Below, in pieces: positions 15,411 to 55,130 of a DNA stretch of 64,000 nt. The notes beneath the pieces were generated by a model. It was given only the letters and a program-made list of their open reading frames with translations, was not told the origin of the DNA and ran no database searches. Source of the DNA: a virus (lineage: Duplodnaviria; Caudoviricetes); the IMG/VR virus record IMGVR_UViG_3300033066_000592, positions 1 through 64,000 of that record. One strand, given 5' to 3'. Both the position numbers and the translations under genes were made by a program. Positions within the stretch are counted from its first letter, which is position 1. Each line of letters opens with the position of its first letter.

Positions 15411-16070
15411 ATGAAAATCCTCCGACTCGCTCCTCTCTTCCTGCTCATCTCCTCGTGCTTCTTCGACCTAGCCGGCTTGCAAAGCGGCAATAAAGTGCCT
15501 GACGCAGCTGCGTCAGCTGTCGACATGCACAGCAGTACTGTCGTCACGACGTATGATCTGACTACGTCTGTCGATTTGCTGCCTGCGCAAGATCCGCCTG
15601 TTGCCGCAGCTGGCTGCTCGTCTGGCCTCGGCTATCCTGTCTACGTCGGCGCTGTGCAGCTGTATGCGTGTCCTGGCATCTTTGATGCTGGCAAAGCCGC
15701 GTCTCTCTGCGCCAGCGGCTACACGATCGCAACAGCCGTCACGCCGAACTGTACGTTCGCTGTCACGCAGACGTACAAGACGTACGGTTTTTTCACTGCG
15801 AACGTGCTCTACGCCAACATTGGCGCCGATGCCGCAGCGCCTGTATGCCAGTGGCAGAACCAGTCGGCCGTAGATCGCGGCATCGGCGGCTGCGGCAATG
15901 CCGCGAACGTGCTTACGACGCCAGCAGGCTGTGGCAGCACCGATCGCACGATGCCTTGCTCTGCTGCTGCATCGAGTTTCAGCTGTCCGACGACGAGTCG
16001 CGGTGATGGCGACTTCGCTGCTGGCTTGTCCAACACGGATCCGCGTAGCGGCGTGCTCTGCTATCGCTGA
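15411..16070 (+). CDS. Cys-rich lipoprotein
   Basis: MKILRLAPLFLLISSC lipobox; D-L spaced linker; many Cys in the mature domain. Confidence 0.75.
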   Translation: MKILRLAPLFLLISSCFFDLAGLQSGNKVPDAAASAVDMHSSTVVTTYDLTTSVDLLPAQDPPVAAAGCSSGLGYPVYVGAVQLYACPGIFDAGKAASLCASGYTIATAVTPNCTFAVTQTYKTYGFFTANVLYANIGADAAAPVCQWQNQSAVDRGIGGCGNAANVLTTPAGCGSTDRTMPCSAAASSFSCPTTSRGDGDFAAGLSNTDPRSGVLCYR

Positions 16071-16149
16071 AAAAAAGAAAAGCCGCACACGGAATGATCT
16101 GTGTGCGGCTCCAGCTCAACACCCTTCGCAGCGCAAAGCGTAGCAGACG

Positions 16150-17103
16150 CTACGGCACCGTCGCAAGCTCCTGAACGACAAAGCTCAGCTCGACTTCGGC
16201 ACCGACGCCTGCATGCACGGCGTTGTCGAAGCCGAGATTCGCCGTGCTCGCGGCGTCATGTTGCACGCTGCCGTTGGCGCCTGCCGTGTTGGTCGTCACA
16301 GCGAGAGCCGCGAGAATGCCAGTCGCATTTGCGCCGACAAGCGGCAGCGCGTTGAGCGCGATACGCGCTTCCAGCGCCGTCATCGCTGCCAGATTCGCAG
16401 CGTCGCCCGTGCCTGTATACGTACCGACGCCCGGCAAGCCTAGCGAGGTCGGCACGCCAGCGTCCGAGAAGGCGACGAATTGCACTGAGCTGCCTGTGCC
16501 AAACGTACCGCTGGCGTAGTCGATCTCGCTGCCGCCGGAAGCCACAGGCGCGAAGTTCGGAATCGCCGCGGCGATCAGCGTCGCGAGCACGGCGGCGCGC
16601 GTGGTGTCGCCGACGCCGAATGTCACCATGACAGGCGCTCCACCGTTGACAGCGATCGTCACGCTCTTGCCGTTGAGGCCCGCATAGGTGGCGCCGACAC
16701 TGACCTTGTGACCGGCTGTACCTGCCCAGGTCTTGGTCTGCACGGCTCCGCCATCGATCTTGAACTTCGTTGTCTGACCTGGCGTGATGTTGAAAGGACC
16801 CGTACCGCCGATGGCAGCTCCGATGGTCTGCGTGGCGTCCGTGTTGTTGGCTTGCAGCACGGCGACTTCGAACGTGCCCAGCTCAGGCAGCTTGCGCGCC
16901 TGAACCTTGACGCCGTTCGATGTGCTCCAGTCGTTCACGCTCGCTTGTACGACGTAGTTGTTGTGCATGATGCCGAGCTTGACGACGGCTCGCGCAATGG
17001 CGTGGAACGTACCCAGATGCAGCTGCGGATTGAATCGGCTGCGCCACGGAAACGGTGCGCTGCGGCTGCCGGCATCGGCCGGCTCGACGAGAACTGCGGT
17101 CAT
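16150..17103 (-). CDS. beta-rich protein paralogous to the tail-sheath insertion domain
   Basis: AGGAG RBS before ATG 17103; shares LGFDNAVHAG and other blocks with the sheath ORF at 51915. Confidence 0.8.
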   Translation of the reverse strand: MTAVLVEPADAGSRSAPFPWRSRFNPQLHLGTFHAIARAVVKLGIMHNNYVVQASVNDWSTSNGVKVQARKLPELGTFEVAVLQANNTDATQTIGAAIGGTGPFNITPGQTTKFKIDGGAVQTKTWAGTAGHKVSVGATYAGLNGKSVTIAVNGGAPVMVTFGVGDTTRAAVLATLIAAAIPNFAPVASGGSEIDYASGTFGTGSSVQFVAFSDAGVPTSLGLPGVGTYTGTGDAANLAAMTALEARIALNALPLVGANATGILAALAVTTNTAGANGSVQHDAASTANLGFDNAVHAGVGAEVELSFVVQELATVP

Positions 17104-17183
17104 GTGCTTTCTCCTGTGCTCGTGAATCAGCGCCGTTCGCCACCGTGGCGTCGTGCGCCTATTGCGCCGCACAGGCTAGCACG

Positions 17184-17471
17184 TCAACGATCGAGTGGCG
17201 TGACTCCTGGATCAGGCTCACCGTAATCGACGAGATAGAAGCGCTCGCTATGAGCCTGCGCCTCACAGTGACCTGTGTTTGGATTGCAGCGGGCAGGCAG
17301 CTTGCAGCCGCCTGGACACTCTTTAACAGGCATGACGCCACCGTCGTACGTCTGCACAGGTGGCGTGTGCTCGTAACGACGGCTGACAACCTGTCGATCA
17401 CGTGTGAAGTAAACGAACAGCAGCAGCGCCAGGAGCATCGCCGTGGTCTGTATGAAGTCGCGCCAGCTCAT
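17184..17471 (-). CDS. membrane-anchored protein with Cys-rich motif
   Basis: N-terminal TM helix; CPGGCKLPARCNPNTGHC. Confidence 0.6.
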   Translation of the reverse strand: MSWRDFIQTTAMLLALLLFVYFTRDRQVVSRRYEHTPPVQTYDGGVMPVKECPGGCKLPARCNPNTGHCEAQAHSERFYLVDYGEPDPGVTPLDR

Positions 17472-17797
17472 GGCTTGATCTCCGAGATGGGCGGCTTGCT
17501 GATAGGCACTGCTGTCGGCTCTGCTGTTGGCGCAGATGGTGTAGCTGGCACGGCAGGATCTTTGCGACGCAGTGCTTCGAGAGCGATGTCGCGGTTCGTG
17601 TCGATCAGACGCAGAATCACGCGCTCTGCGGAGGCGTCTTTCTGCTTGGGCATCTTTCGTCTGACGATGAGCGTAGCTACAACGACAAACACAACGGCGC
17701 CAACGCCCGATATGCCTTTGAGAGACGTTGCCGTCTCGACCATCTCAGGTATGCCCGCGTCGGCTATTCGCATCCACATGGACGCGGACCCTATCAA
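17468..17797 (-). CDS. single-TM hypothetical protein
   Basis: GVGAVVFVVVATLIV followed by RRK; adjoins both neighbouring genes. Confidence 0.55.
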   Translation of the reverse strand: MIGSASMWMRIADAGIPEMVETATSLKGISGVGAVVFVVVATLIVRRKMPKQKDASAERVILRLIDTNRDIALEALRRKDPAVPATPSAPTAEPTAVPISKPPISEIKP

Positions 17798-18583
17798 CTA
17801 CCAGCTACCTATGACAAGCGACTCTACGTCGGGTAGGTTTTTTGGCACGTGCAGACGGGCCAACGCACGACCCAGCCAGAGCGTGTTGACGTTCTGTCGT
17901 AGCAAGTCGACTACGGCTGGACTGGTGCTGTTCATGATGTCTGCGTCATCGGCGGATAAGACGCCACAGAGGTCGTAGAAGTCGCGTAAAAGCACGTTGG
18001 CTGTTGCCGGTCCGATGCCGCGAACGCCTGGCACTTGATCGTGCTTACCGACGAAAGCGAGGTAGTCTGCATACCGTGATGGTGGAAAGCTGTAGGTCAG
18101 TGCGAAGTTGCCGAGGTTGAATTCGGACTTACCGTCGGTGATGCTCGTAACCTTGCTCACGGCTGCATAGAGATCATGATCGCCGGTCACGACGAGAACG
18201 CGATTGAAATTCACAGCTTCAGCTCGTCGAGCAAGACCGAATAACACGTCGTCAGCTTCCACGCCATCAGCGTCGACAACTGTAAAACCAAGCTTGTGTA
18301 CAGCTGTGCGTGCTTTTTTCAGCTCACCGACGAAGGCTGGGGTCTTCGCGTCACGAAGGGCTTTATAGCCTTCGCCGTCGGTGAGTGGTTTTAGACGCTG
18401 TAGGATGTTGCGGCGATAGTCTCGACTGGAAGCGGTGTCAAAAACGACGGCACCGTGCGTGAAGTCTCGACGGAAGCGAAGAACATTTCGGATGACATAG
18501 TTTGCACCGCCCACCGACGGTACGGCGCATCCCCGATGTAGGAGGTTGTATCCGTCGAGAAGCACTAGCGATTTTTGGCTCAC
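17798..18583 (-). CDS. 5'-3' exonuclease (PolI N-terminal / T4 RNase H family)
   Basis: LLDGYNLLHR, VFD, YKALR, EADDV, TGDHDL, GKHDQVPGVRGIGP (H3TH). Confidence 0.92.
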   Translation of the reverse strand: MSQKSLVLLDGYNLLHRGCAVPSVGGANYVIRNVLRFRRDFTHGAVVFDTASSRDYRRNILQRLKPLTDGEGYKALRDAKTPAFVGELKKARTAVHKLGFTVVDADGVEADDVLFGLARRAEAVNFNRVLVVTGDHDLYAAVSKVTSITDGKSEFNLGNFALTYSFPPSRYADYLAFVGKHDQVPGVRGIGPATANVLLRDFYDLCGVLSADDADIMNSTSPAVVDLLRQNVNTLWLGRALARLHVPKNLPDVESLVIGSW

Positions 18584-24672: not shown

Positions 24673-26529
24673 ATGAATTCGGCGCAGCAGCAGAGCTGGC
24701 AAGAGCGCAGCAACCTAGATCCAGGTACAGCACAGCTTGTTGACGAACTGGCGATGGCCCTCGTCAACAAGCTGCATCCAGCGCAGCTGCGCAACCCTGA
24801 GTCGCCGCCTAGTGAGTCGGTGCTGGTCGATCCACAAGGGGAACCTCTGTCGAAGTCGTTCGACGAGCCAAAAAGCTACTTCATCGATCCGAATGACATG
24901 CTGGGCGGGACGGGTATGAACTACGTCTACCCGCCCACGCAAGTCACGTACGAGACACTGCGCCTGCTGGCGGAGCGTGTGCCTGTTTGCTCGTGTGTGA
25001 TTCTGACGCGTGTGAATCAGGTCGCGTCGTTCTGCCGAGCGCCGCGCAACAAGTATGACATCGGCTTCAAGGTGCGGCCGATCGGCAAGTTCGATGATCG
25101 CGAGCTGACACCGGCAGAGAAATCCAAGTCGGAGGACATTGAGACGTTCCTGCGTTGGACTGGCAACGAGTACAACGAAGGTCGCGATGACTTCCAGACG
25201 TTCGTGAAAAAGCTCGTCAGAGACCGCTTGTACTATGACCAGGCGTGCTTTGAGAAAGTCGCATCACGTGACGGCGGCCTTGCCAGTTTTCATGCGATTC
25301 CGTCAGAGTCGATTCGCATCGCGATTCCGAAAAACGCGCAGGCGACACCTCCGACGGAGCACGATGTACGCCACGACGTCAAGTACGTGCAGATCATCAA
25401 CAGTCAGCCAATTCGCGACTACACGCATCGTGAGCTGGCTTTCCTGGTGGCTAACCCGCGCACGAATCTGCACGTCAACGGTTACGGATTCCCTGAGACA
25501 GAGATGATGCTGACCACGGCGATGGCGTTGCTGTGGGCAGAGGAGTGGAACCGCAACATCTTCAAGCAGGGCTCCACGCTCAAAGGCATCCTCAACGTCA
25601 AAGGCAGCTTCGCCAAGAACAAGTTCCTCGACCTGAAGCGAGAGTTTCAGACGAAGTTCACAGGCGTTCATAACGCGCACAAAAACGGCATCGTCAACGT
25701 CGACGAGCTTCAGTGGATTGCACTCCAGCTGAGCAATACGGAGATGGGCTTTCAGAGCTGGATCGAGTACCTGATCAAGCTCACTTGCGCGTTCTACCTC
25801 ATCGACCCCGCCGAGGTGAATTTCGACCTGCGCGGTAGCTCCCAGCAGCAGCCGATCTTCATGTCTGGCAACGAAGCCCAGCAGAAGATCAGCCGTGATC
25901 GCGGCTTGTCGCCGTTGCTTCAGTACGTCGAAGACGCCATCAACAAGCACATCGTATGGCGTATCGACCCACGCTATATGTTTGGGTTCGTCGGTCTCAA
26001 CGCCAAGACGCAAGAGCAGGCGATCGAGCTGGCCAGCAAAGAGGTCAGTTCCAAGCTCACGCTCAATGAAGTACGCGCGCTGGACGATCTGCCACCTGTG
26101 AAGGGCGGCGACATCGTACTCAACGCGATCTACACAGGCCGCTTGGCTGCATTGGACCAGCAGCAGGCTGGCGGTGGCATGCCAGGAATGCCACCGGGCG
26201 CGGCACCAGGCATGCCTGGTCAACCTCAACCGCCACAGCCGGGTCAGCAGCAGCCTGGGAATCCTTACGACCAGCTACAGCCAGGCCCGCCGGCTGCCGA
26301 AGATAAGCAGGCCGGTGCAAACCTGAAAGCTGCGAGTCAAGGTAAAGATGAGTCGTCATCGAGTGGCGACTCATCTGTGCCTAAGAAGGTCCGGCGCGTG
26401 TTGATGCGCAACGATTGGGAAAACAGCTCTCTGTTCATGTCGCAGGACAAGCGCAGCGCAGCAGGCACAGACTTGGTGAAGTCTCTGTTTGGCCAGGATG
26501 CGACTGGCGATACGTACGACGAAGTCTAG
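24673..26529 (+). CDS. portal protein
   Basis: LVRDRLYYDQACFE, NPRTN..VNGYGFPE, F.QGS..KGIL, QWIAL..SN.EMGF, IDPAEVNF, TLNEVRA.DDLPP..GGD. Confidence 0.92.
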   Translation: MNSAQQQSWQERSNLDPGTAQLVDELAMALVNKLHPAQLRNPESPPSESVLVDPQGEPLSKSFDEPKSYFIDPNDMLGGTGMNYVYPPTQVTYETLRLLAERVPVCSCVILTRVNQVASFCRAPRNKYDIGFKVRPIGKFDDRELTPAEKSKSEDIETFLRWTGNEYNEGRDDFQTFVKKLVRDRLYYDQACFEKVASRDGGLASFHAIPSESIRIAIPKNAQATPPTEHDVRHDVKYVQIINSQPIRDYTHRELAFLVANPRTNLHVNGYGFPETEMMLTTAMALLWAEEWNRNIFKQGSTLKGILNVKGSFAKNKFLDLKREFQTKFTGVHNAHKNGIVNVDELQWIALQLSNTEMGFQSWIEYLIKLTCAFYLIDPAEVNFDLRGSSQQQPIFMSGNEAQQKISRDRGLSPLLQYVEDAINKHIVWRIDPRYMFGFVGLNAKTQEQAIELASKEVSSKLTLNEVRALDDLPPVKGGDIVLNAIYTGRLAALDQQQAGGGMPGMPPGAAPGMPGQPQPPQPGQQQPGNPYDQLQPGPPAAEDKQAGANLKAASQGKDESSSSGDSSVPKKVRRVLMRNDWENSSLFMSQDKRSAAGTDLVKSLFGQDATGDTYDEV

Positions 26530-40374: not shown

Positions 40375-41225
40375 GCGAGTCACCGTTTGCACGTGTGGTT
40401 CTGCACCAGAAACCTACAAAGCTGGAAACGCCAGATTCTGGCCGCACAGGCTTGGTGCGCATTGCGACGTACGAGGGCGGCACCAAAGCTGTGGTCCGTG
40501 TGCAGAGTCACGAGCTTGAAGGTAAGCGCACCAAGGGCTTCACCAAGCAAGACGGGCTGCCTGTGAAATCACAGCCCGTCAAAGACGCGGCCTACTACGC
40601 ACTGGCGAAGCTGTTGCGTTGCGACGACATCGTGCCCGAAACGTTGCTGAAGATTACGCGACGCGGCAACGACGTTTCATACCAACGATTCGAGCGAGCA
40701 CTGACACTGCGTGACCTAGAGCCGGCTTTACACAAGCTGGAAAAGGGCAGCGACGAGTGGCGTGCTGCGGCGGCACAAGCCATGAAAGTCGTCTCTGACG
40801 AAGACTGGCTCAAGGCAGCGCTGCTCGGCCTTGTTGCGGCTGACCGAGACAGGCATCTCAAGAACTTTGGCGTGCGTGTCTTGGTTGAAGGAAACCGCAT
40901 CGTCTATAGGCTCGTGCTGTGGGACAACGGCGTTTGTCTCGGACAAGCATTCAAGAAGTATCGCAGCGTCGTGCATGAGATCCTGCATGCTCGCAAACTG
41001 GTGTTCGGTGACGTCTTGGCGCGCGTAGACGACATACGTGCTGACGACGTGACAGACTTACTGGTTACGAACCGCATCCACCCGACGGAAGCACAGCAAG
41101 CCGGCAAGCGGCTTGACTTCGTGCGCCGATACCCCCACCGGATGCCTTGGAACATACTCACAGGCATGCCCGGCTATCCTGCCTATCGAAATTTCTTCAG
41201 AGGCGGGGTAGATTGGCGGGGATGA
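40371..41225 (+). CDS. PI3K/PI4K- or HipA-like kinase
   Basis: AAYYALAKLL..DIVPET; DRDRHLKN catalytic loop; LWDNG. Confidence 0.72.
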   Translation: MSESPFARVVLHQKPTKLETPDSGRTGLVRIATYEGGTKAVVRVQSHELEGKRTKGFTKQDGLPVKSQPVKDAAYYALAKLLRCDDIVPETLLKITRRGNDVSYQRFERALTLRDLEPALHKLEKGSDEWRAAAAQAMKVVSDEDWLKAALLGLVAADRDRHLKNFGVRVLVEGNRIVYRLVLWDNGVCLGQAFKKYRSVVHEILHARKLVFGDVLARVDDIRADDVTDLLVTNRIHPTEAQQAGKRLDFVRRYPHRMPWNILTGMPGYPAYRNFFRGGVDWRG

Positions 41226-42010
41226 GTACAGCACACGAGGTACAGCGTCTTCTTGAGGAGGACGAATTTTCGCTGTGGGTTCCGCCTACCGCGACGTCAG
41301 GCTTTACGCTCCTGTCGAAAGCTGGCGAAGTTCCTGCTGACGATGCCCCGCGCATCATTCACGGCTTCTGCACGACAGAGCACGAAGACCGGCAACAGGA
41401 AATCGTGATCGCCAAGGGCCTGGACTTCGCACCGTTCATCAAGCATGGCTGGTTCAACGACAATCACTCGCCACGAACGGCCGACGTGTTGGGCTGGCCT
41501 ATCGAAGCTCGTCTCTACGAAGACAAAGGCTGGTACACGAAAGGCCAGCTTCTGAAGGGCAAAAAAGCCGCTGACGACGTATGGGAACTGGCTGTCGCCC
41601 TTTTCAAGAGTGGTAGCCCTCGACGCCTGGGCTTTTCGATCGAAGGCAAAGCGACGTTGCGCAATGCAGCAAATCGCATTGTCAAAGGCGTTGTGCGTCA
41701 TGTCGCCATCACGCGCGATCCTGTGAACCCGAACTGTCAGCTCGACGTGCTGTGCAAGGCTTTCGCGCCGTCGGAAGAAATCGAGCGCGCCTACACGATC
41801 AGCAAGGCCGCGATGATCGGCCATCAACATCCCGTTATGCACGGTCACGCAGCTCTTGTGCCTGCAAACTTGGAAGCTGCACGTATCATCCGACGAAAAC
41901 AAAAACGTTTGTCGAAGGCAGACGTAGAACATCTCGTACGTCAAGAGATGCAAATGTCCGACGCCTCCGTGATGCGCGTCGTGGACTGGATCATGTCGCA
42001 ACAACAGTGA
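41222..42010 (+). CDS. prohead maturation protease
   Basis: IHGFCTTEHEDRQQEIV, FNDNH, GFSIEG, HVAIT.DPVNP. Confidence 0.85.
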   Translation: MSTAHEVQRLLEEDEFSLWVPPTATSGFTLLSKAGEVPADDAPRIIHGFCTTEHEDRQQEIVIAKGLDFAPFIKHGWFNDNHSPRTADVLGWPIEARLYEDKGWYTKGQLLKGKKAADDVWELAVALFKSGSPRRLGFSIEGKATLRNAANRIVKGVVRHVAITRDPVNPNCQLDVLCKAFAPSEEIERAYTISKAAMIGHQHPVMHGHAALVPANLEAARIIRRKQKRLSKADVEHLVRQEMQMSDASVMRVVDWIMSQQQ

Positions 42011-42017
42011 GGACCAG

Positions 42018-42389
42018 ATGAACAAGGCACCGACGCAGACCACTCGCCGTATCAACCTGACCGATCCCCAGATCAAGCTGTTTCAGCTGGCGAGCGGTCA
42101 GAGTTTTACGATCCCGGAATCGATCGACATCCCTCCGATGCCGAACAACCTGATGGCTGCGGCCACCAGTCGGCGCGCCACTGGCGGTGAGATTTTTGGC
42201 TTCACCGATGACCAGGGCGTCATCGAGCCGCATCGGGATTTCGGCCTCGTGCTGAAGCCTGGCGATCGGCTGGTGCACGGTGCCATCGGCGCGGTGGCCG
42301 CGAACACTTCGATCCTGTACGTCAACGACGTCGAAGTGCTGCGAATCACGTGCAGCGACATCAGCGTGGTGCTCGGCTTCTACAGCTAG
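42018..42389 (+). CDS. hypothetical protein
   Basis: GAGGA RBS; lies between protease and scaffold. Confidence 0.65.
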   Translation: MNKAPTQTTRRINLTDPQIKLFQLASGQSFTIPESIDIPPMPNNLMAAATSRRATGGEIFGFTDDQGVIEPHRDFGLVLKPGDRLVHGAIGAVAANTSILYVNDVEVLRITCSDISVVLGFYS

Positions 42390-42438: not shown

Positions 42439-43404
42439 ATGGGTAAGAAAGCAGTTTCAGACGAGACGGTTACGGCAGCGCTGGCACAGCTGCGATCCAA
42501 GATCGCCAAGAGCCAAGGCGGCGATGCCCTGGCGAGCGCCGATACGGAGGGTGGGCTGTCCTCCGAAGGTGAAGACATGAGCAAGCTGGGCAAAGGCAAG
42601 GCCGGCAAGGTCGCCAAAGGCAAGAAGCCACCGATGAAGAAGATGTATTCGGAGTCGGATAAAGATCCCGACGAGTCGTCTGACGATGACGAATCGAGTG
42701 ACGACGAGTCTTCGCCCGCAGCGCCGCCTGTCAAGAAGGGCATGCCGGAGTCTGACGAGTCGTCCGACGAAGAGTCATCCGACGACGAGGAGTCTTCGCC
42801 TGCGCCGACCGTCAACAAGAGCAAGAAGCGCGTTCGCAAGTCGCTCGTCGATCGCGTCGAGGACGACACGGATTTGCGCAAGGGCTTCGCCGCCAATGCG
42901 TTCCTGAAGTCGATGACGGAACGCCTGTCGGACACCGTCGAAGACTATCGCGACGAGCTGCGCAAGTCGTACGGCGAGCTGTCCGAGCAGGTCGATGGTC
43001 TGGGCGAGAACTTCGCGGGCATGCACGAGAACATCAGCGCTCTGGCGGCCGACAACGCGCGACTGAAGAAGGGCATGGATGTGCTTGCGGAGGGCCTGAC
43101 TGAGGCGCTGTCGCTGCTCGAACGCATTGCCAAGGCGCCTACGAGCAGCGGTCCACGCAGCGTTCTGCGCAAAGGGGATGTCGTGGAGCCGTCGCGGCTC
43201 AATGACGGCGGTGATGATTCGCTGAACCCCGCGCAGCACAGCAATCTCGTCAAGTCGTACCTGCTAGAGAAGATCGAGAAGGGCGAAGTGGCCAGCACGG
43301 TCATGGCTGCCTGGGAGCAGATGGGCAACGTCGAGTATTTGCCCTCGAATGTCATGAACAAGATGCTGGCCGATTTCCAGGCCGGCTGGAAGCCCAAGGC
43401 GTAA
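42439..43404 (+). CDS. capsid scaffold protein
   Basis: Acidic D/E/S tracts and coiled coil; directly upstream of the major capsid gene; GGAG RBS before ATG 42439. Confidence 0.75.
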   Translation: MGKKAVSDETVTAALAQLRSKIAKSQGGDALASADTEGGLSSEGEDMSKLGKGKAGKVAKGKKPPMKKMYSESDKDPDESSDDDESSDDESSPAAPPVKKGMPESDESSDEESSDDEESSPAPTVNKSKKRVRKSLVDRVEDDTDLRKGFAANAFLKSMTERLSDTVEDYRDELRKSYGELSEQVDGLGENFAGMHENISALAADNARLKKGMDVLAEGLTEALSLLERIAKAPTSSGPRSVLRKGDVVEPSRLNDGGDDSLNPAQHSNLVKSYLLEKIEKGEVASTVMAAWEQMGNVEYLPSNVMNKMLADFQAGWKPKA

Positions 43405-43468: not shown

Positions 43469-44944
43469 ATGTACGATAACGGAAACCTGTCAGAACTTGC
43501 CGGCGGCGGCGCGTCCTTTGGCGTCGGTCTGCCAGAGAACTACTTCGGCGCCGGTTTCGGTGGTGCGACCGAGAGCGAGATCCGCAAGGCGCTCACGATC
43601 GGCACGCAGCATCCGGCCGTCAGTGGCGGCATGACGCTCACGAGTCAGTCCCTGGAAGGGACCATGCGCGTCACGACGCTCAACATGAGCCACATCAAGT
43701 TCTACAAGAAGCTGTCGCGGCTCGGCGCCGACAACACGGTGCTGGAGTACAACCTGCAAGACAGCTACGGCCAGACCCGCGCCGGAGCCTTCACCAAGGA
43801 AGGCGAGCTGCCGCAGCAGCAGGATGCCGCGTATCGCCGCGCGCTCGCGCAAGTCAAGTACCTGGGCACGCAGCGTGGCGTCAGCCATCCGATGACGGTC
43901 GTGAAGTCGGCCTTCGGCAACGTCATCGCGCTGGAAACGACCAACGGCGTCATCTATCTGATGTACCAGCTGGAAAAGGCCCTGTTCAAAGGCGACAGCA
44001 CGATCGTGCCCGAGTCCTTCGACGGCATCTTCCAGCAGATCGTGCAGCATCCTGTTGCGCGTCGCCGGAACATCATCGACCTGCGCAACGGCGTCGTCAC
44101 GCAAGACATCATCGAGCAGGCGTCGAACATCATCGTCTCTGCACTGGGCGAGCCGACGGATCTCGTGTTCTCGCCGAAAGCGCATTCGGACTACAGCCGC
44201 CAGTTCTACCCGATCCAGCGTGCGGGCCTGCCGATCGCGACTTCGCAGGGTACCGTCGGCTTCGTGGTGCAAGAGACGCTGACCACGGGCGGTATGATCA
44301 AGCTGGAGAACAACCTGTTCCTGCGGCCTGGCGAAATCGGTTCACTGAGCGAAGGCGACACCGACAAGGCGCCGCCGAGCGTAGCCAGTTCGCCGAAGGC
44401 CCCGCTGCCTCCGACGATCGCGCTGGCCGCCGCCGTGGGCATCGGCAGCAAGTTCAGTGCTGCCGATGTCGGCACCTATCGCATCCGTGTGTCGGCCAAG
44501 AACCGCTTCGGCGAAAGCGCCGCGTCGTCGTCGTCGTCGGTCCTTGTGGCTGCTGCCGGTGACGGCATCCAGATCACCATCACGGATGGCGGTGGTCTCG
44601 GAGATCAGACGACGACGGGCTTCATCATCTATCGCAGCGCCGATCCGAATGCCATCGCCGGTACCGAAGAGGTCATGGTCGAAGTGCCGCGTACGCCTGG
44701 CGCGACCACGATCACGATCGACGCCAACGATGACATCCCTGGCACGAGCAAGGCGCTGATGTACAACGCCTCGCTGCAGGTGATGTCGTGGCGTCAGCTG
44801 CTGCCGATGATGAAGGTCGCGCTGGCCACCACGGCGCCTTCGGTGCAGTGGATGCAGCTGCTGTACGGTACGCCCATCGTGTACCAGCCCACCAAGGTCG
44901 TGCTGCTACGCAACATCCGTGATCGTCAAGCGCTGCTGTCGTAG
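43469..44944 (+). CDS. major capsid protein (SPO1/Twort-type)
   Basis: QSLEGT, EYN...F..EGELP...D..Y.R....KYL, LEKALFKGDS...FDG; FN3-like YRI.V..KNRFGES insertion. Confidence 0.92.
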   Translation: MYDNGNLSELAGGGASFGVGLPENYFGAGFGGATESEIRKALTIGTQHPAVSGGMTLTSQSLEGTMRVTTLNMSHIKFYKKLSRLGADNTVLEYNLQDSYGQTRAGAFTKEGELPQQQDAAYRRALAQVKYLGTQRGVSHPMTVVKSAFGNVIALETTNGVIYLMYQLEKALFKGDSTIVPESFDGIFQQIVQHPVARRRNIIDLRNGVVTQDIIEQASNIIVSALGEPTDLVFSPKAHSDYSRQFYPIQRAGLPIATSQGTVGFVVQETLTTGGMIKLENNLFLRPGEIGSLSEGDTDKAPPSVASSPKAPLPPTIALAAAVGIGSKFSAADVGTYRIRVSAKNRFGESAASSSSSVLVAAAGDGIQITITDGGGLGDQTTTGFIIYRSADPNAIAGTEEVMVEVPRTPGATTITIDANDDIPGTSKALMYNASLQVMSWRQLLPMMKVALATTAPSVQWMQLLYGTPIVYQPTKVVLLRNIRDRQALLS

Positions 44945-45738: not shown

Positions 45739-46530
45739 GTGGCTCTCGTGCTTCCTCGACCCTTCTATGTAGACATCAGCGACTTCACCGCTGCCTACCT
45801 CAAGAAAAACTATCTCATCGGCTTCAAGTTCGTCGACGGAAATGGCGTCGAACTTGAAGACAGTGTGTACGAGCACTGGCTTTCAGTCGCTGTTGCGATG
45901 CTTGAAACCAAGCTGAGTATCGCGATCTGGCCTGTGGATGTCATAGACGAGAAGCACGAATACTACGTTGAGGACTACGTCAACTACGCGTTCGTGCCAC
46001 TTGAGAAATGGCCCGTGCGCGATGTCACAGAAGTGTCGATTCACTACGCGCCAGATAAGAAGATCCTGGTCTATCCGCATGAGTGGTTGCGCATTCATAA
46101 GTCAGCCGGACAGCTGCAGCTAATACCCACGCTTTCGCAGTCAGCACCTTTGTCGATCGTTGGGTTTCAGAGTTCATGGGTGCCCTTCATCCTGAACATC
46201 TACAGCAACAAATTTCCACAATACTGGTACGTCAGTTACAGCGCAGGGTTTGACAACAAGATCCCGGCAGATGTTGCTGACGCAATCTTCAAACTCGCTG
46301 TCACGGATATGTACATCCTGATGGGCGTAACGGCTGTGCCGATTGGTGTTGCGTCTGAGTCTGTGTCTGTGGACGGTCTCAGTCAGAGCCGCAGCTACAA
46401 TGAACCGTTCAAGGCTGTTCTCGACAGATATAACAAAAGCTTGTATGGCACGCCTGGTAATCCAAATGATCCAGGTATCATCGCTAACCTCGTCGCCAAG
46501 TACAAAGGCGTCATGATCGAATCGCTGTAG
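45739..46530 (+). CDS. head-tail adaptor/connector; start may be GTG 45748
   Basis: YVSYSAGF...IPADV.DAI..L, S.SVDGLSQS; position after the capsid gene. Confidence 0.75.
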   Translation: MALVLPRPFYVDISDFTAAYLKKNYLIGFKFVDGNGVELEDSVYEHWLSVAVAMLETKLSIAIWPVDVIDEKHEYYVEDYVNYAFVPLEKWPVRDVTEVSIHYAPDKKILVYPHEWLRIHKSAGQLQLIPTLSQSAPLSIVGFQSSWVPFILNIYSNKFPQYWYVSYSAGFDNKIPADVADAIFKLAVTDMYILMGVTAVPIGVASESVSVDGLSQSRSYNEPFKAVLDRYNKSLYGTPGNPNDPGIIANLVAKYKGVMIESL

Positions 46531-46542
46531 GAGAGAGCTTGC

Positions 46543-46851
46543 ATGAATACGCAAGGTGAAAGCAGCACAGGTGTTTTGAACCTAGCCAGTACAGGTGAGT
46601 TGCAAGTGGTTGACGTACAGACCGTGACGCGCGGTGACGCCACATTCGCGCGCAACCTACAGCTGTACAACTTCGGTCCTGACCCGATAGAGGTAGCGTT
46701 CGGCAACGGTGAGCTGAGTGCATTCGTACCTGTCGCCATAAGCCAGCCTTTCGGCACGGACGGTCCTATCACAAAATTCGCGTTGCGCGCTGCTCCTGCA
46801 TCTGTAGGTGCGCGGGTCTCCTATAGCTTGCGAAATGCAGGTGGTAAGTGA
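46543..46851 (+). CDS. hypothetical virion protein
   Basis: AGGAG RBS. Confidence 0.55.
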   Translation: MNTQGESSTGVLNLASTGELQVVDVQTVTRGDATFARNLQLYNFGPDPIEVAFGNGELSAFVPVAISQPFGTDGPITKFALRAAPASVGARVSYSLRNAGGK

Positions 46852-47249
46852 CTGGTTGGGGATCTGGGGCAGGTCCTGCCGGTCCTGCCGGTCCTGCCGG
46901 TCCTGCTTACGAAACGGTGGCATCGGACACCGCCGCTAGTGCTGGCGACGTAGCGCGGCGGGTGCCAGGAGGTCACATCGAAAAAGCCACAGGCGGCGCT
47001 GCAGGCGATGGCGAAGGCTGCGTTGGTATGTATGGTGCAAACGTAATTGGAGGCGCAAGCGCCACGCTTTACCGTACCGGGTCGCGCTGCCCGGTCGCGG
47101 GGCTACCTGTTGGCGAACTCTGGCGCAGCAACACAGGCACAGCGGTGCAGTATTCGTCGATTGTGTTCGGGGAGTACACCAACCGGATCGGGTACTCCGA
47201 TGGTGCTGGCGTCGATGTGAACATTGGACCCGAGGAGCAAAAGCCATGA
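46848..47249 (+). CDS. protein with short collagen-like GPA repeat
   Basis: GTGA coupling; GPAGPAGPAGPA. Confidence 0.6.
   Translation: MTGWGSGAGPAGPAGPAGPAYETVASDTAASAGDVARRVPGGHIEKATGGAAGDGEGCVGMYGANVIGGASATLYRTGSRCPVAGLPVGELWRSNTGTAVQYSSIVFGEYTNRIGYSDGAGVDVNIGPEEQKP
46872..46906. repeat. 9-bp tandem repeat (GGTCCTGCC, about 4 copies)
   Basis: Seen directly in the sequence. Confidence 0.9.
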
Positions 47250-48991
47250 AACGTCTATCAGCCTATCTGTGCTTTGCGCTGGCCGTGCTGCTTGCCGCAC
47301 CGGCGCACGCGTACAAGCCGCAGTGCAAAGACGCCTCTGGGCGCCTGATTCAATGCACTGGCAACCTAGACAACACGCAGGCACCGACCTCGATCGCTGC
47401 CTCGACACTGACCGGTGCTGTCGGCGTGCCGAATGGCGGCACCGGCGCAACGTCGATGACGGCACACGGCGCAGTTGTCGTGGACGGTTCGGGCACAGCA
47501 CTGCAGGCGACAAATGCGCCAACAACGGCCGGCCAGCATCTCATGTGGGACGGCGCGCAGTGGCTGCCCGGTATTCAGACAGGGACGGTCTACTACTTCC
47601 GCCGGGACGCTTCGGACATTGGCGGCGGCTATGAGCAGATCACGCAGACGCCGCAGACGGGCGCGGAAAAGACCGCATCGACGACGCTAAACAATGCGTC
47701 AGGAACGGTGGTGTTTGACCGATACGCCACCAATGTAGGCGAGCCGGGTCTAACGCAGTTGCTAGCGGGAACCTGGGAATTTGACATTTACGCCCAGGTA
47801 TCATCCACGGCGGGCGGTAACTCAACTAACGTCGTGATCCAAGTCTACCAACGCACGACTGGCGGCACAGAGACGCTGTTGTTTAGCACAACAAGCCCTG
47901 CGCTAGACAGCACAAGCCCAAAGCTGTATTCGTGGCTGTACACGCAGGCCGCCGACATTGCGCTGGCTATCACAGATCGATTAGTAGTTAAGGTTGCGGC
48001 GACCAATAGCAGCGTAACAAATCGCACGGTTACGTTCTACTATGAGGGCACATCGCGTTACTCTCATTTCCATCCGCCGTTTTTATCGCTGATTGACGGT
48101 GGTTCGCTGGTGACGGTCGGCGGAACCCAGACAATCACAGGCGCTAAGACGTTTAGCGTCGCGCCGATCATGTCCGGCGCAAACATCACCGCAGCGACGG
48201 TGCCAGCGGCGAAGCTCAGCGGCGGCACGTTGGGTCGTCTGCTGTACGATGACGGCACCGGCGGCGCATGGCTTGGCGTTGGTACGTCGGGCTATCTGCT
48301 GCAGTCCGCGGCACCTGGCTTTGCGCCGGTGTGGTCCAACACCATCAGCGGAATCACAATCCCAGCTGATCTCAACACGATCACCAACCTGACCACCGCA
48401 TCGCTCGCCCCGGCCTTCGTGCTGGGCGCTGCCAACGGCGGCACGGGGCAGTCGACTTACACCGCTGGGCAGACACTGTATGCGACCGGAGCCACCACGC
48501 TCGCAAAGCTCAGTATCGGCGCGGCCAACACGGTCTACACCAGCACGGGCAGTGCGCCAAGCTGGGCGGCCCTGCCCACGGCGTCGAGTGGGTCCGCTGT
48601 GCTTGGTGCGGCCTTTCCGCTGACGACGACGGATGTTTATCAAGACACTGGCTTAAACGCGTCACTGCCAAGCGCTGGCACGTATCAGATAACGGCACAG
48701 GTCAAAGCTACGCTGCTGGCAACAACCGGAGCCCCTTATGCGGTGTGTCGTCTCTACAACGTCACAGCGGGAGCCGCCGTGACAAACACAGAATTGTTTG
48801 TCGCATTTGCTCCTGCCGCCGGCACATATGGGATTAACACCGCAACTGGGATTTATGTTGTTACCATCGGATCGGCTGCGACGGTGCGGCTAGACTGCGC
48901 GCGAAGACAAGCCACCGTCTGGTCACAGGCTGAGATTAGCAGCGACCCAGACGGCAAAACTCTGATCACTTGGGTCAAGTGGGCGTCATGA
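47246..48991 (+). CDS. fibre-like Thr/Gly-rich protein with N-terminal signal peptide
   Basis: MKRLSAYLCFALAVLLAAPAHA; NGGTG motifs; TQTITGAKTF. Confidence 0.7.
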   Translation: MKRLSAYLCFALAVLLAAPAHAYKPQCKDASGRLIQCTGNLDNTQAPTSIAASTLTGAVGVPNGGTGATSMTAHGAVVVDGSGTALQATNAPTTAGQHLMWDGAQWLPGIQTGTVYYFRRDASDIGGGYEQITQTPQTGAEKTASTTLNNASGTVVFDRYATNVGEPGLTQLLAGTWEFDIYAQVSSTAGGNSTNVVIQVYQRTTGGTETLLFSTTSPALDSTSPKLYSWLYTQAADIALAITDRLVVKVAATNSSVTNRTVTFYYEGTSRYSHFHPPFLSLIDGGSLVTVGGTQTITGAKTFSVAPIMSGANITAATVPAAKLSGGTLGRLLYDDGTGGAWLGVGTSGYLLQSAAPGFAPVWSNTISGITIPADLNTITNLTTASLAPAFVLGAANGGTGQSTYTAGQTLYATGATTLAKLSIGAANTVYTSTGSAPSWAALPTASSGSAVLGAAFPLTTTDVYQDTGLNASLPSAGTYQITAQVKATLLATTGAPYAVCRLYNVTAGAAVTNTELFVAFAPAAGTYGINTATGIYVVTIGSAATVRLDCARRQATVWSQAEISSDPDGKTLITWVKWAS

Positions 48992-51914: not shown

Positions 51915-54632
51915 ATGAGCAGGCAGGTCATCTTCCACGGCGCAGTTCTGACGCGGCCAGGCGCGGCCACGTTCGTTGACGCCTCGGCTTTTGCCGATTT
52001 CTTTCTGGCGGGCCTAGGCATCGTCGCAATCATCGGTCTGGCCGATGGTGGTGAGCCGGGCGTCGTCAAAACGTTCCGCACGCCAAAGGCTGTGCAGGAC
52101 TACTACCGCCAGGGCGACATCCCTGAGTGTGCGGCGATCGTCTCGGACCCGAGCAACGACAACCGTATTCAGCAAGGGGCGTCACTGCTCGTCTGCGTCA
52201 AGACGAACAACAGCACCAAGTCGACGCTGACGAAGGGCCCGTTTACCTTCTCGTCGCTCGACTGGGGAGCGCATACGAACAACATCCAGCTCGCGTTTTC
52301 GAATCCGAGTGGCGGTGATGATCGCGTGCTGAGCATCAACTCGCTCGATCCGCTTGGCGGCACCATTCAGGAGGTGAGTCCTCCGCTGGGCCTCACCGGC
52401 AAGATGACGCTTCAGTATCTGGGCCTGGCCGGCGACGCACTGCTCTCGATTACGGCGACGCAGCTCACGCTGACTACAGTGGCATCGAGCGGCAAGCTGT
52501 ATACGGGTGATGCTCCTTTCAACCTGGCGCCGAATGACACGGTCATCGTCTCGATCGACGGCGGCGTGGATCAGACGTTTACGTTTCTGGCCACCGCGGG
52601 TACGACCGACAGCGCGGTTCAGCCGTACACGCTCGCCAACGGCGAAACGCTGCTGGTGTCTGTGAACGGTGATTCGCCGCAGACGTTCACGTTCAACGCG
52701 ACGGCTGGCTACTACCAAGGCTCGGCAGGCACGTTCGCTGCACTCAATGGCACGACGTTGGCTGTGAAAGTCAACGGCGGTGCGGCTCAGACCACGACGT
52801 TCACGGCTGGTGCTGTGGACGCCGTGACGGCTGCCGCGGAGATTCTGGCCGCGACCACAGGCGTGGCTGTCGGTGTGTTCAACGGACAGATTCGCGTTAC
52901 GTCGCTGCGCGAAGGCACCAGCTCCAGCATCGAAATCACAGCGACAAACGTGGCGGCTGGCTTCCCTGCGCTAGGCTTGGGCGTGGCCGGCACAGGCGAT
53001 TTCTCGGACATCGCGAATGCGACGGCTGCCGAAGTGCAGACGAAGATCGCAGCGACGCTCGTGAACGCCACGGCAAGCGTCGCTGCCTTGAAGGTACGGC
53101 TGACGTCGTTGCGTCAGGGACTGTCATCCACGGTGCAAGTGACGGGCGGTACCGCGCGCATTCCGCTCGGCTTCGACAACGCCGTGCACGCGGGCACCGG
53201 TAACGTGCAGAACATCGACGCCGTGACGGCCAACGAGGTGAAGACTATCGTGGCGCCGGCTGGCGGCGTCAGCACTGTCGTGCCCAGCGCCACGGTATCC
53301 GGCGCATTTCGCGTGGAGCTGCGATCGGCTACGGCCGGTGCCAGTTCGTCGATCAAGATTCAGCCGTTGTCGACCGCTGACACCGCGTTGAGTCTCGACA
53401 ACGTCACGCACAGTGGCCTTGACGCCGTGCCTGGCGACAACATCACGGTGCTGTTCTCGGCCGTGCCTGACATGGCGAGTCTCGCGCACGTCATCAACGT
53501 CACGGGCAAGTACATGCTGACGCCGCTCGTGGGCAGCCCTGGGCTTTGGGACAACACATACTTCGATGCCATCACGAACGTCTCGACGATCGGCGGCGTT
53601 GAAGTTTTTGCGCGTAACTGGGATGTGCTCGACTGGGTCTCGCAGACCAGCCAGCTCGTGTCTGTGGACTTGACGAAAGGTCAGACGGGACCGGCTGCCA
53701 CGTGGGCTCTGACCGCAATGGCTGGCGGTACGCGCGGCATCGCAACGAACGCCAGTTACATGGCTGCGCTCGCCAAGCTCACGACGATCACCAAGAATCA
53801 AGTCGTCGTGATGGCCCCGACCGATGGCATTCCGCCTGACACGTACACGCGCGAAGCTGTGCTGGCCGGCTCTGTGTCGCACGTACGGCAACAGAGCGGT
53901 GTCGCTGGCAAGAACGAGTGCCAGCTGTGGTTCGGCTTTGCAGGCAGCAAGTCGGACCTCATCTCGACGGCCAACCTCTACAGCAGCGAGCACCTGTGCC
54001 TCTTGGGTCAAGAGGTGCGGCGTCAGCGCGTGCTCGATGGCAACGTCGTGTGGCACGCAGCCTGGTCCAGCGCTGCGATCTGTGCAGGCATGCGCGCTGG
54101 CGCTCCACCAGCTACGCCGCTCACGTGGAAGTATGTGAACGCACTCGGTGTGCGGCCCGTCGACAGTTCGTGGAGCGACGAGAACAGCTCGGACATCTCG
54201 GACTTCAACCTGAACGGTGTGATGTGCCTGACGCCCGTGCAGGCCGGCATTCGCATCGAGAAGGGCATCACGACCTACACACGCACGAACAACGCAGCCT
54301 TTGAGTCTGAGGTCATCGTGCAAGGCTGGAAGCGCATGGCGCGCGGCCTGCGCACGACGCTCGAAGACACGTTCATCGGTGAGAGCGCCAGCGCGCGGCG
54401 CATCTCGGCTGTGCCGAGCACCGTGACTGCCGTGATGCAGCAGTACAAGGAAGAGGGCGAGATCACGGACAGCGTCGAAAACGGCGTGCAGGTCAACGCC
54501 TTCCACGACATCAACGTGCGTGGCTCTGGCGACATCGTGGAAGTTGACGTCACGATTCACCAGCCTGATGGCATCAACTTCATCCTGGGCACGATCTTCA
54601 CGCGACCGGCATCGTTCGCGGCCACGGCGTAA
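51915..54632 (+). CDS. tail sheath protein with large beta-rich insertion
   Basis: N-terminal LTRPGA...IIGLADGGEPG; C-terminal IRIEKGITTY, F.G, INFI. Confidence 0.92.
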   Translation: MSRQVIFHGAVLTRPGAATFVDASAFADFFLAGLGIVAIIGLADGGEPGVVKTFRTPKAVQDYYRQGDIPECAAIVSDPSNDNRIQQGASLLVCVKTNNSTKSTLTKGPFTFSSLDWGAHTNNIQLAFSNPSGGDDRVLSINSLDPLGGTIQEVSPPLGLTGKMTLQYLGLAGDALLSITATQLTLTTVASSGKLYTGDAPFNLAPNDTVIVSIDGGVDQTFTFLATAGTTDSAVQPYTLANGETLLVSVNGDSPQTFTFNATAGYYQGSAGTFAALNGTTLAVKVNGGAAQTTTFTAGAVDAVTAAAEILAATTGVAVGVFNGQIRVTSLREGTSSSIEITATNVAAGFPALGLGVAGTGDFSDIANATAAEVQTKIAATLVNATASVAALKVRLTSLRQGLSSTVQVTGGTARIPLGFDNAVHAGTGNVQNIDAVTANEVKTIVAPAGGVSTVVPSATVSGAFRVELRSATAGASSSIKIQPLSTADTALSLDNVTHSGLDAVPGDNITVLFSAVPDMASLAHVINVTGKYMLTPLVGSPGLWDNTYFDAITNVSTIGGVEVFARNWDVLDWVSQTSQLVSVDLTKGQTGPAATWALTAMAGGTRGIATNASYMAALAKLTTITKNQVVVMAPTDGIPPDTYTREAVLAGSVSHVRQQSGVAGKNECQLWFGFAGSKSDLISTANLYSSEHLCLLGQEVRRQRVLDGNVVWHAAWSSAAICAGMRAGAPPATPLTWKYVNALGVRPVDSSWSDENSSDISDFNLNGVMCLTPVQAGIRIEKGITTYTRTNNAAFESEVIVQGWKRMARGLRTTLEDTFIGESASARRISAVPSTVTAVMQQYKEEGEITDSVENGVQVNAFHDINVRGSGDIVEVDVTIHQPDGINFILGTIFTRPASFAATA

Positions 54633-54659: not shown

Positions 54660-55130
54660 ATGGCGAACAGAAGCACACAAGTTATCTCAGGCGCGCGTCT
54701 TGGCTTTCTCTTCAACGGCAAGATCGTCGCCTACGCCAACGAAGTCAGCGGCGGTGAAGAGATCCGGCATGACGAAATCGACGTGCTCGATGACATCGTC
54801 GTCAAAGAGCACGTGCCTGTGGCATATCGCGTCAGCTTGAGCGCCGTCATTTGGCGCACGGTGGCTGACGGACCTGCAACGACGGAGGCGCCTGGCTCTC
54901 TGAAGGAGATGAACCTCTTTCCGAAAGTCGAGAACATTCTCCGCACGGTCGGTTTGCCAGCCATCCTGGTCGACAGCATCACAGGCAAGACGATTGCGAT
55001 GTTCGAGAACGTCAAGGCCAGCGGCAATCGCTGGAGCGTGCCCGCCAAGGGCACCGTTCGGCAGAACGTCGAGTTCGTCGCACGTCGTCAGCGCGACGAG
55101 TCCGAAGTGAAGCCGGTACGCACACCGTAG
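54660..55130 (+). CDS. tail tube protein
   Basis: Follows sheath; VISGAR...EH.PV.Y.VSL. Confidence 0.8.
   Translation: MANRSTQVISGARLGFLFNGKIVAYANEVSGGEEIRHDEIDVLDDIVVKEHVPVAYRVSLSAVIWRTVADGPATTEAPGSLKEMNLFPKVENILRTVGLPAILVDSITGKTIAMFENVKASGNRWSVPAKGTVRQNVEFVARRQRDESEVKPVRTP

Follow-up and report, generated by a model that had tools for sequence, protein, structure and literature searches.

A tail-sheath plug-in domain recurs in a small accessory protein of an uncultured contractile-tailed phage

Introduction

The locus described here raises two questions: how a small free protein of a phage came to share a domain with the tail sheath of the same phage, and what this protein does. The window, i.e., the whole stretch of 64,000 nucleotides that was analyzed, was taken from the start of an IMG/VR virus contig of 74 kb (estimated completeness 63%, ~59% G+C), and its source is an uncultured, contractile-tailed phage. 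The plus strand holds nearly all genes of the window and the minus strand only four, among them the gene for the free protein, denoted P0002. The features to which the analysis refers are the following, with positions in the window:

15411-16070, plus strand: gene convergent to the P0002 gene
16068-16111, minus strand: intrinsic-terminator-like hairpin and U-run (MFE -37.5 kcal/mol, z -3.5)
16150-17103, minus strand: gene for the free 317-aa protein P0002, an intact open reading frame (ATG at 17103, stop codon at 16150-16152)
17110-17115, minus strand: Shine-Dalgarno sequence AGGAGA, 6 nt before the P0002 ATG, as read from the sequence
17184-17471, minus strand: second small membrane-anchored protein, followed by an 80-nt spacer and then by the P0002 gene
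17468-17797, minus strand: first small membrane-anchored protein, after the flap exonuclease
17798-18583, minus strand: 5'-3' flap exonuclease (phrog_107 exonuclease, E 3.5e-15)
24673-26529: portal, a structural gene
41147-42010, plus strand: head maturation protease (phrog_1028, E 8e-45)
42018-42389, plus strand: small conserved head-operon gene directly after the protease (123 aa as translated)
about 42440-43404: scaffold, a structural gene
43469-44944: major capsid protein of the SPO1 type, a structural gene
51915-54632, plus strand: tail sheath P0001, 905 aa (phrog_279, E 5e-46; tblastn to SPO1-type sheaths)
54660-55130: tube, followed by tape-measure-like and baseplate genes

Results

The free gene and its setting

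The P0002 gene lies where the sequence-only reading of this DNA had placed it, as an intact frame of 317 aa on the minus strand, and its start agrees with the N-termini of three homologues. The strong hairpin with its U-run lies ~40 nt past the P0002 stop codon and faces the convergent gene; this hairpin (about 16080-16111) could terminate both convergent transcripts. The ribosome-binding site and the terminator, together with the conserved scaffold residues described below, were counted in favor of the explanation preferred below. A search for a promoter motif common with late genes, and a comparison of the upstream spacer of the window with that of the related locus L008 for conservation, gave nothing convincing. 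P0002 has no match to a Pfam family at E <= 1 and none to a PHROG, and contains neither a signal peptide nor a membrane segment.

The minus-strand cassette adjoins the thymidylate kinase gene and sits among genes of nucleotide metabolism. The two small proteins encoded at 17184-17797 have one membrane segment each, and one of them has a C-terminal part with four cysteines; the convergent gene encodes a Cys-rich protein of 219 aa with a lipoprotein-type signal (…LISSC…). All three of these neighbors lack a PHROG match. Elsewhere on the plus strand, in the 0.7-kb stretch between an adaptor-like gene (45739-46530) and a gene for a 581-aa protein (47246-48991), a short open frame at about 46850-47240 contains a (GPA)4 collagen-like run; another frame of ~100 aa is also open there. 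Comparison of P0002 (tblastn) and of the locus (megablast) to 50,697 phage records revealed no relatives in isolated phages, and the sheath and capsid proteins of the window reach, among isolated phages, only those of the SPO1 type, with 23-34% identity.

Homology of P0002 to the tail sheath

BLASTP aligned residues 103-301 of P0002 with residues 237-429 of the sheath at 34% identity over 203 aa (E 2e-17), and hhalign of the two families gave a probability of 99.9% and E 2e-31 (free 93-300, sheath 223-429). Overall, the homologous ranges are residues 93-302 of P0002 and 223-429 of the sheath. The Smith-Waterman score of 243 is 17 SD above that of 300 composition-preserving shuffles (69 +/- 10). 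A block of 10 amino acids, LGFDNAVHAG, is identical in the two proteins. The N-terminal 92 residues of P0002 scored 34 against the sheath, the same as their shuffles (34 +/- 4.5), and no match in the sheath was found for the first ~92 and the last ~15 residues; the proposal that the free protein has a different N-terminal domain of ~90 aa is thus borne out. All four peptide pairs that had been quoted as evidence of the relationship are present in P0002 and in the sheath. The first of these pairs hits another repeat than the BLASTP alignment because the sheath insertion consists of three repeats:

52491-53426, plus strand: sheath insertion, residues about 193-504, with three plug-in copies in the order hairpin-hairpin-hairpin-body-body-body
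52599-53204, plus strand: homologue of the P0002 module, sheath residues 229-430 (BLASTP, profile search and hhalign)

When hmmsearch was run with the module profile on the sheath, it matched residues 229-430 over the full length, residues 193-261 with the first half only, and residues 394-504 with the second half only. The pattern of three hairpins followed by three bodies implies three copies; P0002 corresponds to the inner two. An AF2 model of the sheath from an alignment of 8 sequences has a pLDDT of 57.8 overall, too low for use, and reaches 85-92 only in the module at 230-430; the outermost, third repeat (193-228 and 431-504) is poorly modeled.

At the DNA level, the two genes share a single stretch of 36 nt with 89% identity (blastn, 7-nt words). 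This stretch, 16198-16233 on the minus strand versus 53166-53201 on the plus strand, encodes LGFDNAVHAG, and divergence elsewhere is saturated. The likeness of these 36 nt is likely due to strong constraint on the peptide combined with shared codon bias. Because nothing beyond this stretch is alike, the duplication is old and the free gene would be unfit as a recombination donor; the suggestion that it supplies variation to the sheath is not supported. The decapeptide itself, although present in both proteins as first noticed, is no mark of special kinship, given that it is the family consensus (GFDNAxHSG occurs in unrelated sheaths).

Domain architecture of P0002

The AF2 model of P0002, built on 13 sequences, has a pLDDT of 88.9, with values above 90 in the module and of 80-92 in the N-terminal part from residue 20 on. 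The parts of the protein are encoded as follows:

16822-17103, minus strand: N-terminal part of the beta-sandwich scaffold, residues 1-94 (AF2; residues 8-18 disordered)
16198-16821, minus strand: module common with the sheath, residues 95-302 (hhalign and VIA-align)
16396-16725, minus strand: inner plug-in domain, residues 127-236, nested in the outer one (VIA-align and Foldseek)
16150-16197, minus strand: C-terminal strand, residues 303-317 (strand 304-312), and stop codon (secondary structure of the model)

The outer plug-in domain, i.e., residues about 95-126 together with 237-302, carries the inner domain, and strand 304-312 returns to the N-terminal sandwich, which consists of residues about 20-94 and 304-312. 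Using VIA-align, we found that the insertion domain of the XM1 sheath (7kh1) matches with Z 9.9 over 100 residues spread over 92-302 of the model, that D2/D3 chains of the flagellar cap protein FliD (5h5w, 5h5v, 6kty, 5h5t) match with Z 9.1-9.8 over ~100 residues at 127-238, and that the matches to small beta-sandwiches span 16-315 with 65-89 aligned residues. These aligned ranges indicate that one plug-in domain sits within another of its type, the inner within the outer, and the sequence repeats of P0002 (hairpin, hairpin, body, body) agree with such nesting. In the same way, as judged from the aligned ranges and not from the coordinates of the model, the plug-in would be inserted in a loop of the host sandwich, with both ends adjacent. 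The top Foldseek matches are likewise FliD proteins (probability 0.94-0.98); lower-ranked fold matches include the sheaths of E217, A-1(L), PhiTE, Mu and Milano, and outer domains of flagellins.

The best matches of the beta-sandwich, with Z 5-6.6, are LKA1 gp49, the Pam1 tailspike, the foot of the R2 pyocin fibre, AP22 gp53, H-type lectins and PliG, all in the chance range; the values of 5.4-6.6 for 4ru4, 7eea, 6cl6, 2ccv and 3wmp are within the range that VIA-align gives for unrelated models. No known decoration protein related to P0002 by fold or sequence was found among the matches listed, which are dominated by the module. The derivation of the scaffold from a sheath domain was considered because language-model look-alikes of residues 1-100 are sheath fragments (0.84-0.88), and was rejected because profile tests did not confirm it: hhalign of the P0002 scaffold alone against three sheath alignments was negative, and solved sheaths align to the module only. 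The core domains of sheaths (N- and C-terminal handshake strands, subtilisin-like domain) were not detected in P0002 by PHROG or Pfam sheath matches.

Distribution and kinship of the plug-in domain

We searched 1.84 billion cluster representatives with a profile built from the free family. It retrieved 259 proteins with E <= 1e-3, of which 95 had E <= 1e-10; most are sheaths of 700-900 aa. The module-bearing sheaths belong to several distinct PHROG sheath families, and BFVD adds baseplate-J-like proteins as carriers; occurrence on both of these indicates an exterior virion domain. The consensus motifs of the whole domain family are GTGD..N...TAAE, ITS...G..SS.QV and GFDNA.H.G.

The insertion domain (InD) of XM1 gp6 has been described as FliD-D3-like and called unique to XM1 (Wang et al. 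2023, Viruses 15:1673, PMC10457771). It resembles the domain studied here in fold (PDB 7kh1/7kjk, Z 9.9, rmsd 2.3 A, 100 residues), in a weak but direct profile match (E 0.015), and in being a surface-exposed domain in a loop of a virion protein. The XM1 sheath differs in that it has one copy, whereas two nested copies are found in the free protein and three in the sheath of the window. The profile search, which detects the domain in hundreds of sheath clusters, shows that it is not unique to XM1. FliD shares with P0002 the fold of the inner domain (Z 8.7-9.8, ~100 residues) and a sequence pattern in which a helix is followed by a strand region of the form ...S...G..S.I.I...LG...; in contrast, P0002 is without the flagellar D0/D1 helices, and the identity is only 11-13%. 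Pfam Flagellin_IN (PF07196) has no match in P0002, and none of the 13 family members matched.

We reconstructed a maximum-likelihood tree of 142 full-length modules. A clade with SH-aLRT 97 unites five of the modules of the free family, and the remaining two pair together (93). One branch with 94% SH-aLRT separates 16 of the 142 modules, namely, the seven free modules, that of the window sheath, those of five further sheaths, and three from other proteins. The module tree is out of step with similarities of the sheath cores. The free and the lineage-sheath modules are, therefore, nearer kin than average and not each other's closest relatives, so that the term "stand-alone paralog" is apt as regards deep homology and placement on the same well-supported side of the tree, and misleading as regards closeness (34% identity, not nearest relatives). 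The two copies would date from an old event in the phage group, when the two-copy unit passed between a sheath and a small sandwich protein, rather than from a recent duplication. The direction was probably from the sheath to the free protein, because module-bearing sheaths are far more numerous. It should be noted that, the tree being unrooted and the product of a quick search, we can only infer this history of transfer.

The free family and its conservation

The free family comprises seven cluster representatives (P0002-P0006, P0115 and P0028) with identities of 25-82%; they have the whole architecture in common, from the private N-terminal region to the C-terminal strand. It is a rare accessory family, new as such, that carries an already known plug-in domain. 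The reading frame is intact in all seven, and invariant residues occur in both the scaffold and the module. Those of the scaffold are F18, P19, H29, H47, N49 and G76. The first five of these (16957-17052, minus strand) stay invariant in a scaffold whose overall identity is only 25-35%, and might make up a site of the beta-sandwich for binding or for a metal.

Small proteins that carry the module in unrelated scaffolds were found as well (P0079, P0052, P0122, P0140, P0148 and P0150). The P0052 gene is directly after an adaptor-like / "tail fiber" phrog_772 gene, and two of these other small module proteins are encoded within head-neck gene runs. Loci L094 (5171-6151) and L095 (3307-4290) encode small proteins of 326 and 327 aa with the same module and different scaffolds; one of these genes is just after an adaptor-like phrog_772/442 gene, and the other is two genes past a phrog_1623 head protein.

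The possibility that P0002 is an internal, processed cargo of the head was considered and set aside. The proposed prohead-protease motif [ILVMF]-x-K-[AGS] is absent from 6 of the 7 family members, with one chance-level match, which argues weakly against such a role.

Position of the gene in relatives

The arrangement of the window is kept in the contigs with P0003 (82% identical) and in L008, which carries P0005 (53%): after the exonuclease gene come those of the two small proteins, then ~80-96 nt of spacer, the free gene and, beyond it, the convergent gene. In three more distant relatives (L009, L010 and L011), whose capsid protein and SNF2 protein are 49% and 45% identical to those of the window, the free gene belongs to the head operon, where it follows the protease gene and precedes, in this order, a conserved gene for a protein of 114-121 aa, the scaffold gene and the capsid protein gene. 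Its start overlaps the stop of the protease gene in L010 and L011. Synteny by blastp and tblastn showed that, in the window, the protease gene is followed directly by the small gene 42018-42389, with no free gene between. This small gene has no PHROG match, and its homologues are found at the corresponding place in L009-L011, L013-L015 and L017-L019 at least.

An alignment-based capsid scan of IMG/VR identified 80 further related head loci (capsid protein 31-47% identical), and in none of them do the 8 kb around the capsid gene hold a free gene, which indicates that the free gene is dispensable. In 5 of the 80, the slot after the protease is occupied by other open reading frames of ~115 aa:

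L013, 6198-6557
L014, 4423-4905
L015, 3984-4466
L018, 6194-6565
L019, 6059-6436

These frames were tried as module-less versions of the P0002 scaffold and rejected at the sequence level, as hmmsearch and hhalign detected no similarity; the same two methods showed none between them and the conserved small gene. The presence of unrelated frames makes the slot look like a hot spot for accessory head-operon genes. The free gene is, accordingly, a sporadic accessory: one branch has it in a variable slot of the head operon, and in the branch of the window it was relocated.

Discussion

The best explanation of these observations, in which we place moderate confidence, is that P0002 serves as an accessory protein of the virion surface, probably that of the head. 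The exterior nature of the domain, the private anchor, the packing of the gene between protease, scaffold and capsid genes in relatives, and its dispensability jointly suggest an accessory protein of the particle surface, by a logic that would be the same, by analogy, as for Ig-domain proteins such as T4 Hoc. The beta-sandwich would be the anchor that docks P0002 on the particle, with the capsid as the most likely site, and the protein would be built like a Russian doll, in which a loop of the sandwich carries the outer plug-in and the outer plug-in carries the second copy. The plug-in domains would point outwards, as the two-copy unit, with a third copy around it, does on the sheath, and the role may be the same as there, i.e., weak multivalent adhesion to surface polymers, or a shielding or stabilizing coat. 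The idea that the same module is displayed from a second structural site fits in that the module is a surface plug-in of virions and the gene is in the head operon of L009-L011; as for the placement of P0002 itself in the virion, we infer it from these facts, as we do docking on the capsid and adhesion. The following findings stand against this explanation. In the window, as in the two relatives nearest to it, the gene lies outside the structural module, on the minority strand, after the exonuclease and the membrane proteins; it is missing from the neighborhood of the capsid gene in the 80 further phages; and the sandwich has no match to a known decoration protein among the matches listed.

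Two known groups of proteins are close to the proposed role. Decoration and cement proteins are encoded between the protease or scaffold gene and the capsid gene, as are lambda gpD, XM1 gp53/TW1 Dec and the BPP-1 cement protein. The free gene is similar in its position in L009-L011, in the small size of its product and in being an accessory family, and differs in that no fold or sequence match to such proteins is among those listed, and in that the window gene is located elsewhere. Ig-like domains are said to have been characterized by Fraser et al. in 2006 as promiscuous accessory domains of T4 Hoc and of many capsid, tube and fibre proteins. Like them, the plug-in is a small self-folding domain that is present in more than one kind of virion protein of a single phage and has shifted from protein to protein in evolution, with dispensable carriers and weak adhesion as the proposed role. 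Unlike them, it has a FliD-like fold and nested copies, and its virion location in the free form is a prediction.

P0002 is thus one more ordinary use of a known, widely shuffled plug-in, probably as a particle decoration, and does not represent a new kind of biology or system. The significance of the case is that a flagellar-cap-like plug-in, in print unique to XM1, is a common movable surface domain of tailed phages, carried, apart from sheaths and baseplates, by small dedicated proteins. The case also illustrates the nesting of copies, and a single accessory gene that is in the head operon or in a replication cassette depending on the relative. If P0002 does prove to decorate the capsid, it would offer a practical natural scaffold for display and a way to learn what the domain binds.

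A location on the tail, neck or baseplate, where P0002 would be an accessory adhesin or short fibre with the beta-sandwich as its binding knob, is a tentative and, in our estimate, somewhat unlikely alternative. The module is mostly a domain of tail proteins, P0052 is encoded right after the adaptor-like gene mentioned above, and the best matches of the sandwich are C-terminal domains of tailspikes and fibres and H-type lectins, although their Z-scores of 5-6.6 are in the range of unrelated small sandwiches; moreover, the gene of L009-L011 is in the protease-scaffold-capsid run and not among the tail genes.

Improbable, to a greater degree, is a non-structural role acquired after the gene left the head operon, either as a soluble look-alike of the sheath surface, produced along with the replication genes as a decoy for a host sensor or receptor, or in work at the envelope together with the two membrane proteins. 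The cassette of exonuclease, two membrane proteins and free gene is kept in three phages down to 53% identity, and it is on the minority strand amid nucleotide-metabolism genes, both of which speak for such a role. However, P0002 has no signal peptide or membrane segment of its own, and it is collinear with its head-operon relatives over the whole length. In addition, the upstream genes overlap tightly, whereas the free gene is preceded by the spacer of 80-96 nt and may, therefore, have its own promoter. A specific form of this role, namely, that relocation was a change of job, with the sheath module made early and in soluble form to distract, as a molecular decoy, a surface factor or immune sensor of the host that recognizes the sheath, i.e., counter-defence by self-mimicry, is in our judgment very improbable; we know of no decoy of such a kind for comparison.

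That the gene is a decaying remnant without function is extremely improbable. Its sporadic spread (7 cluster representatives, absence from the 80 related head loci) is compatible with decay, but the frame is intact in all seven members at 25-82% identity, with invariant residues, and the AF2 model is confident. Finally, a silent cassette that donates sequence to the sheath insertion and so varies the tail surface is close to refuted: one genome does hold two module copies on opposite strands, but they share just the one 36-nt stretch and belong to different subclades, and the free gene has its own start, ribosome-binding site, terminator and conserved private scaffold.
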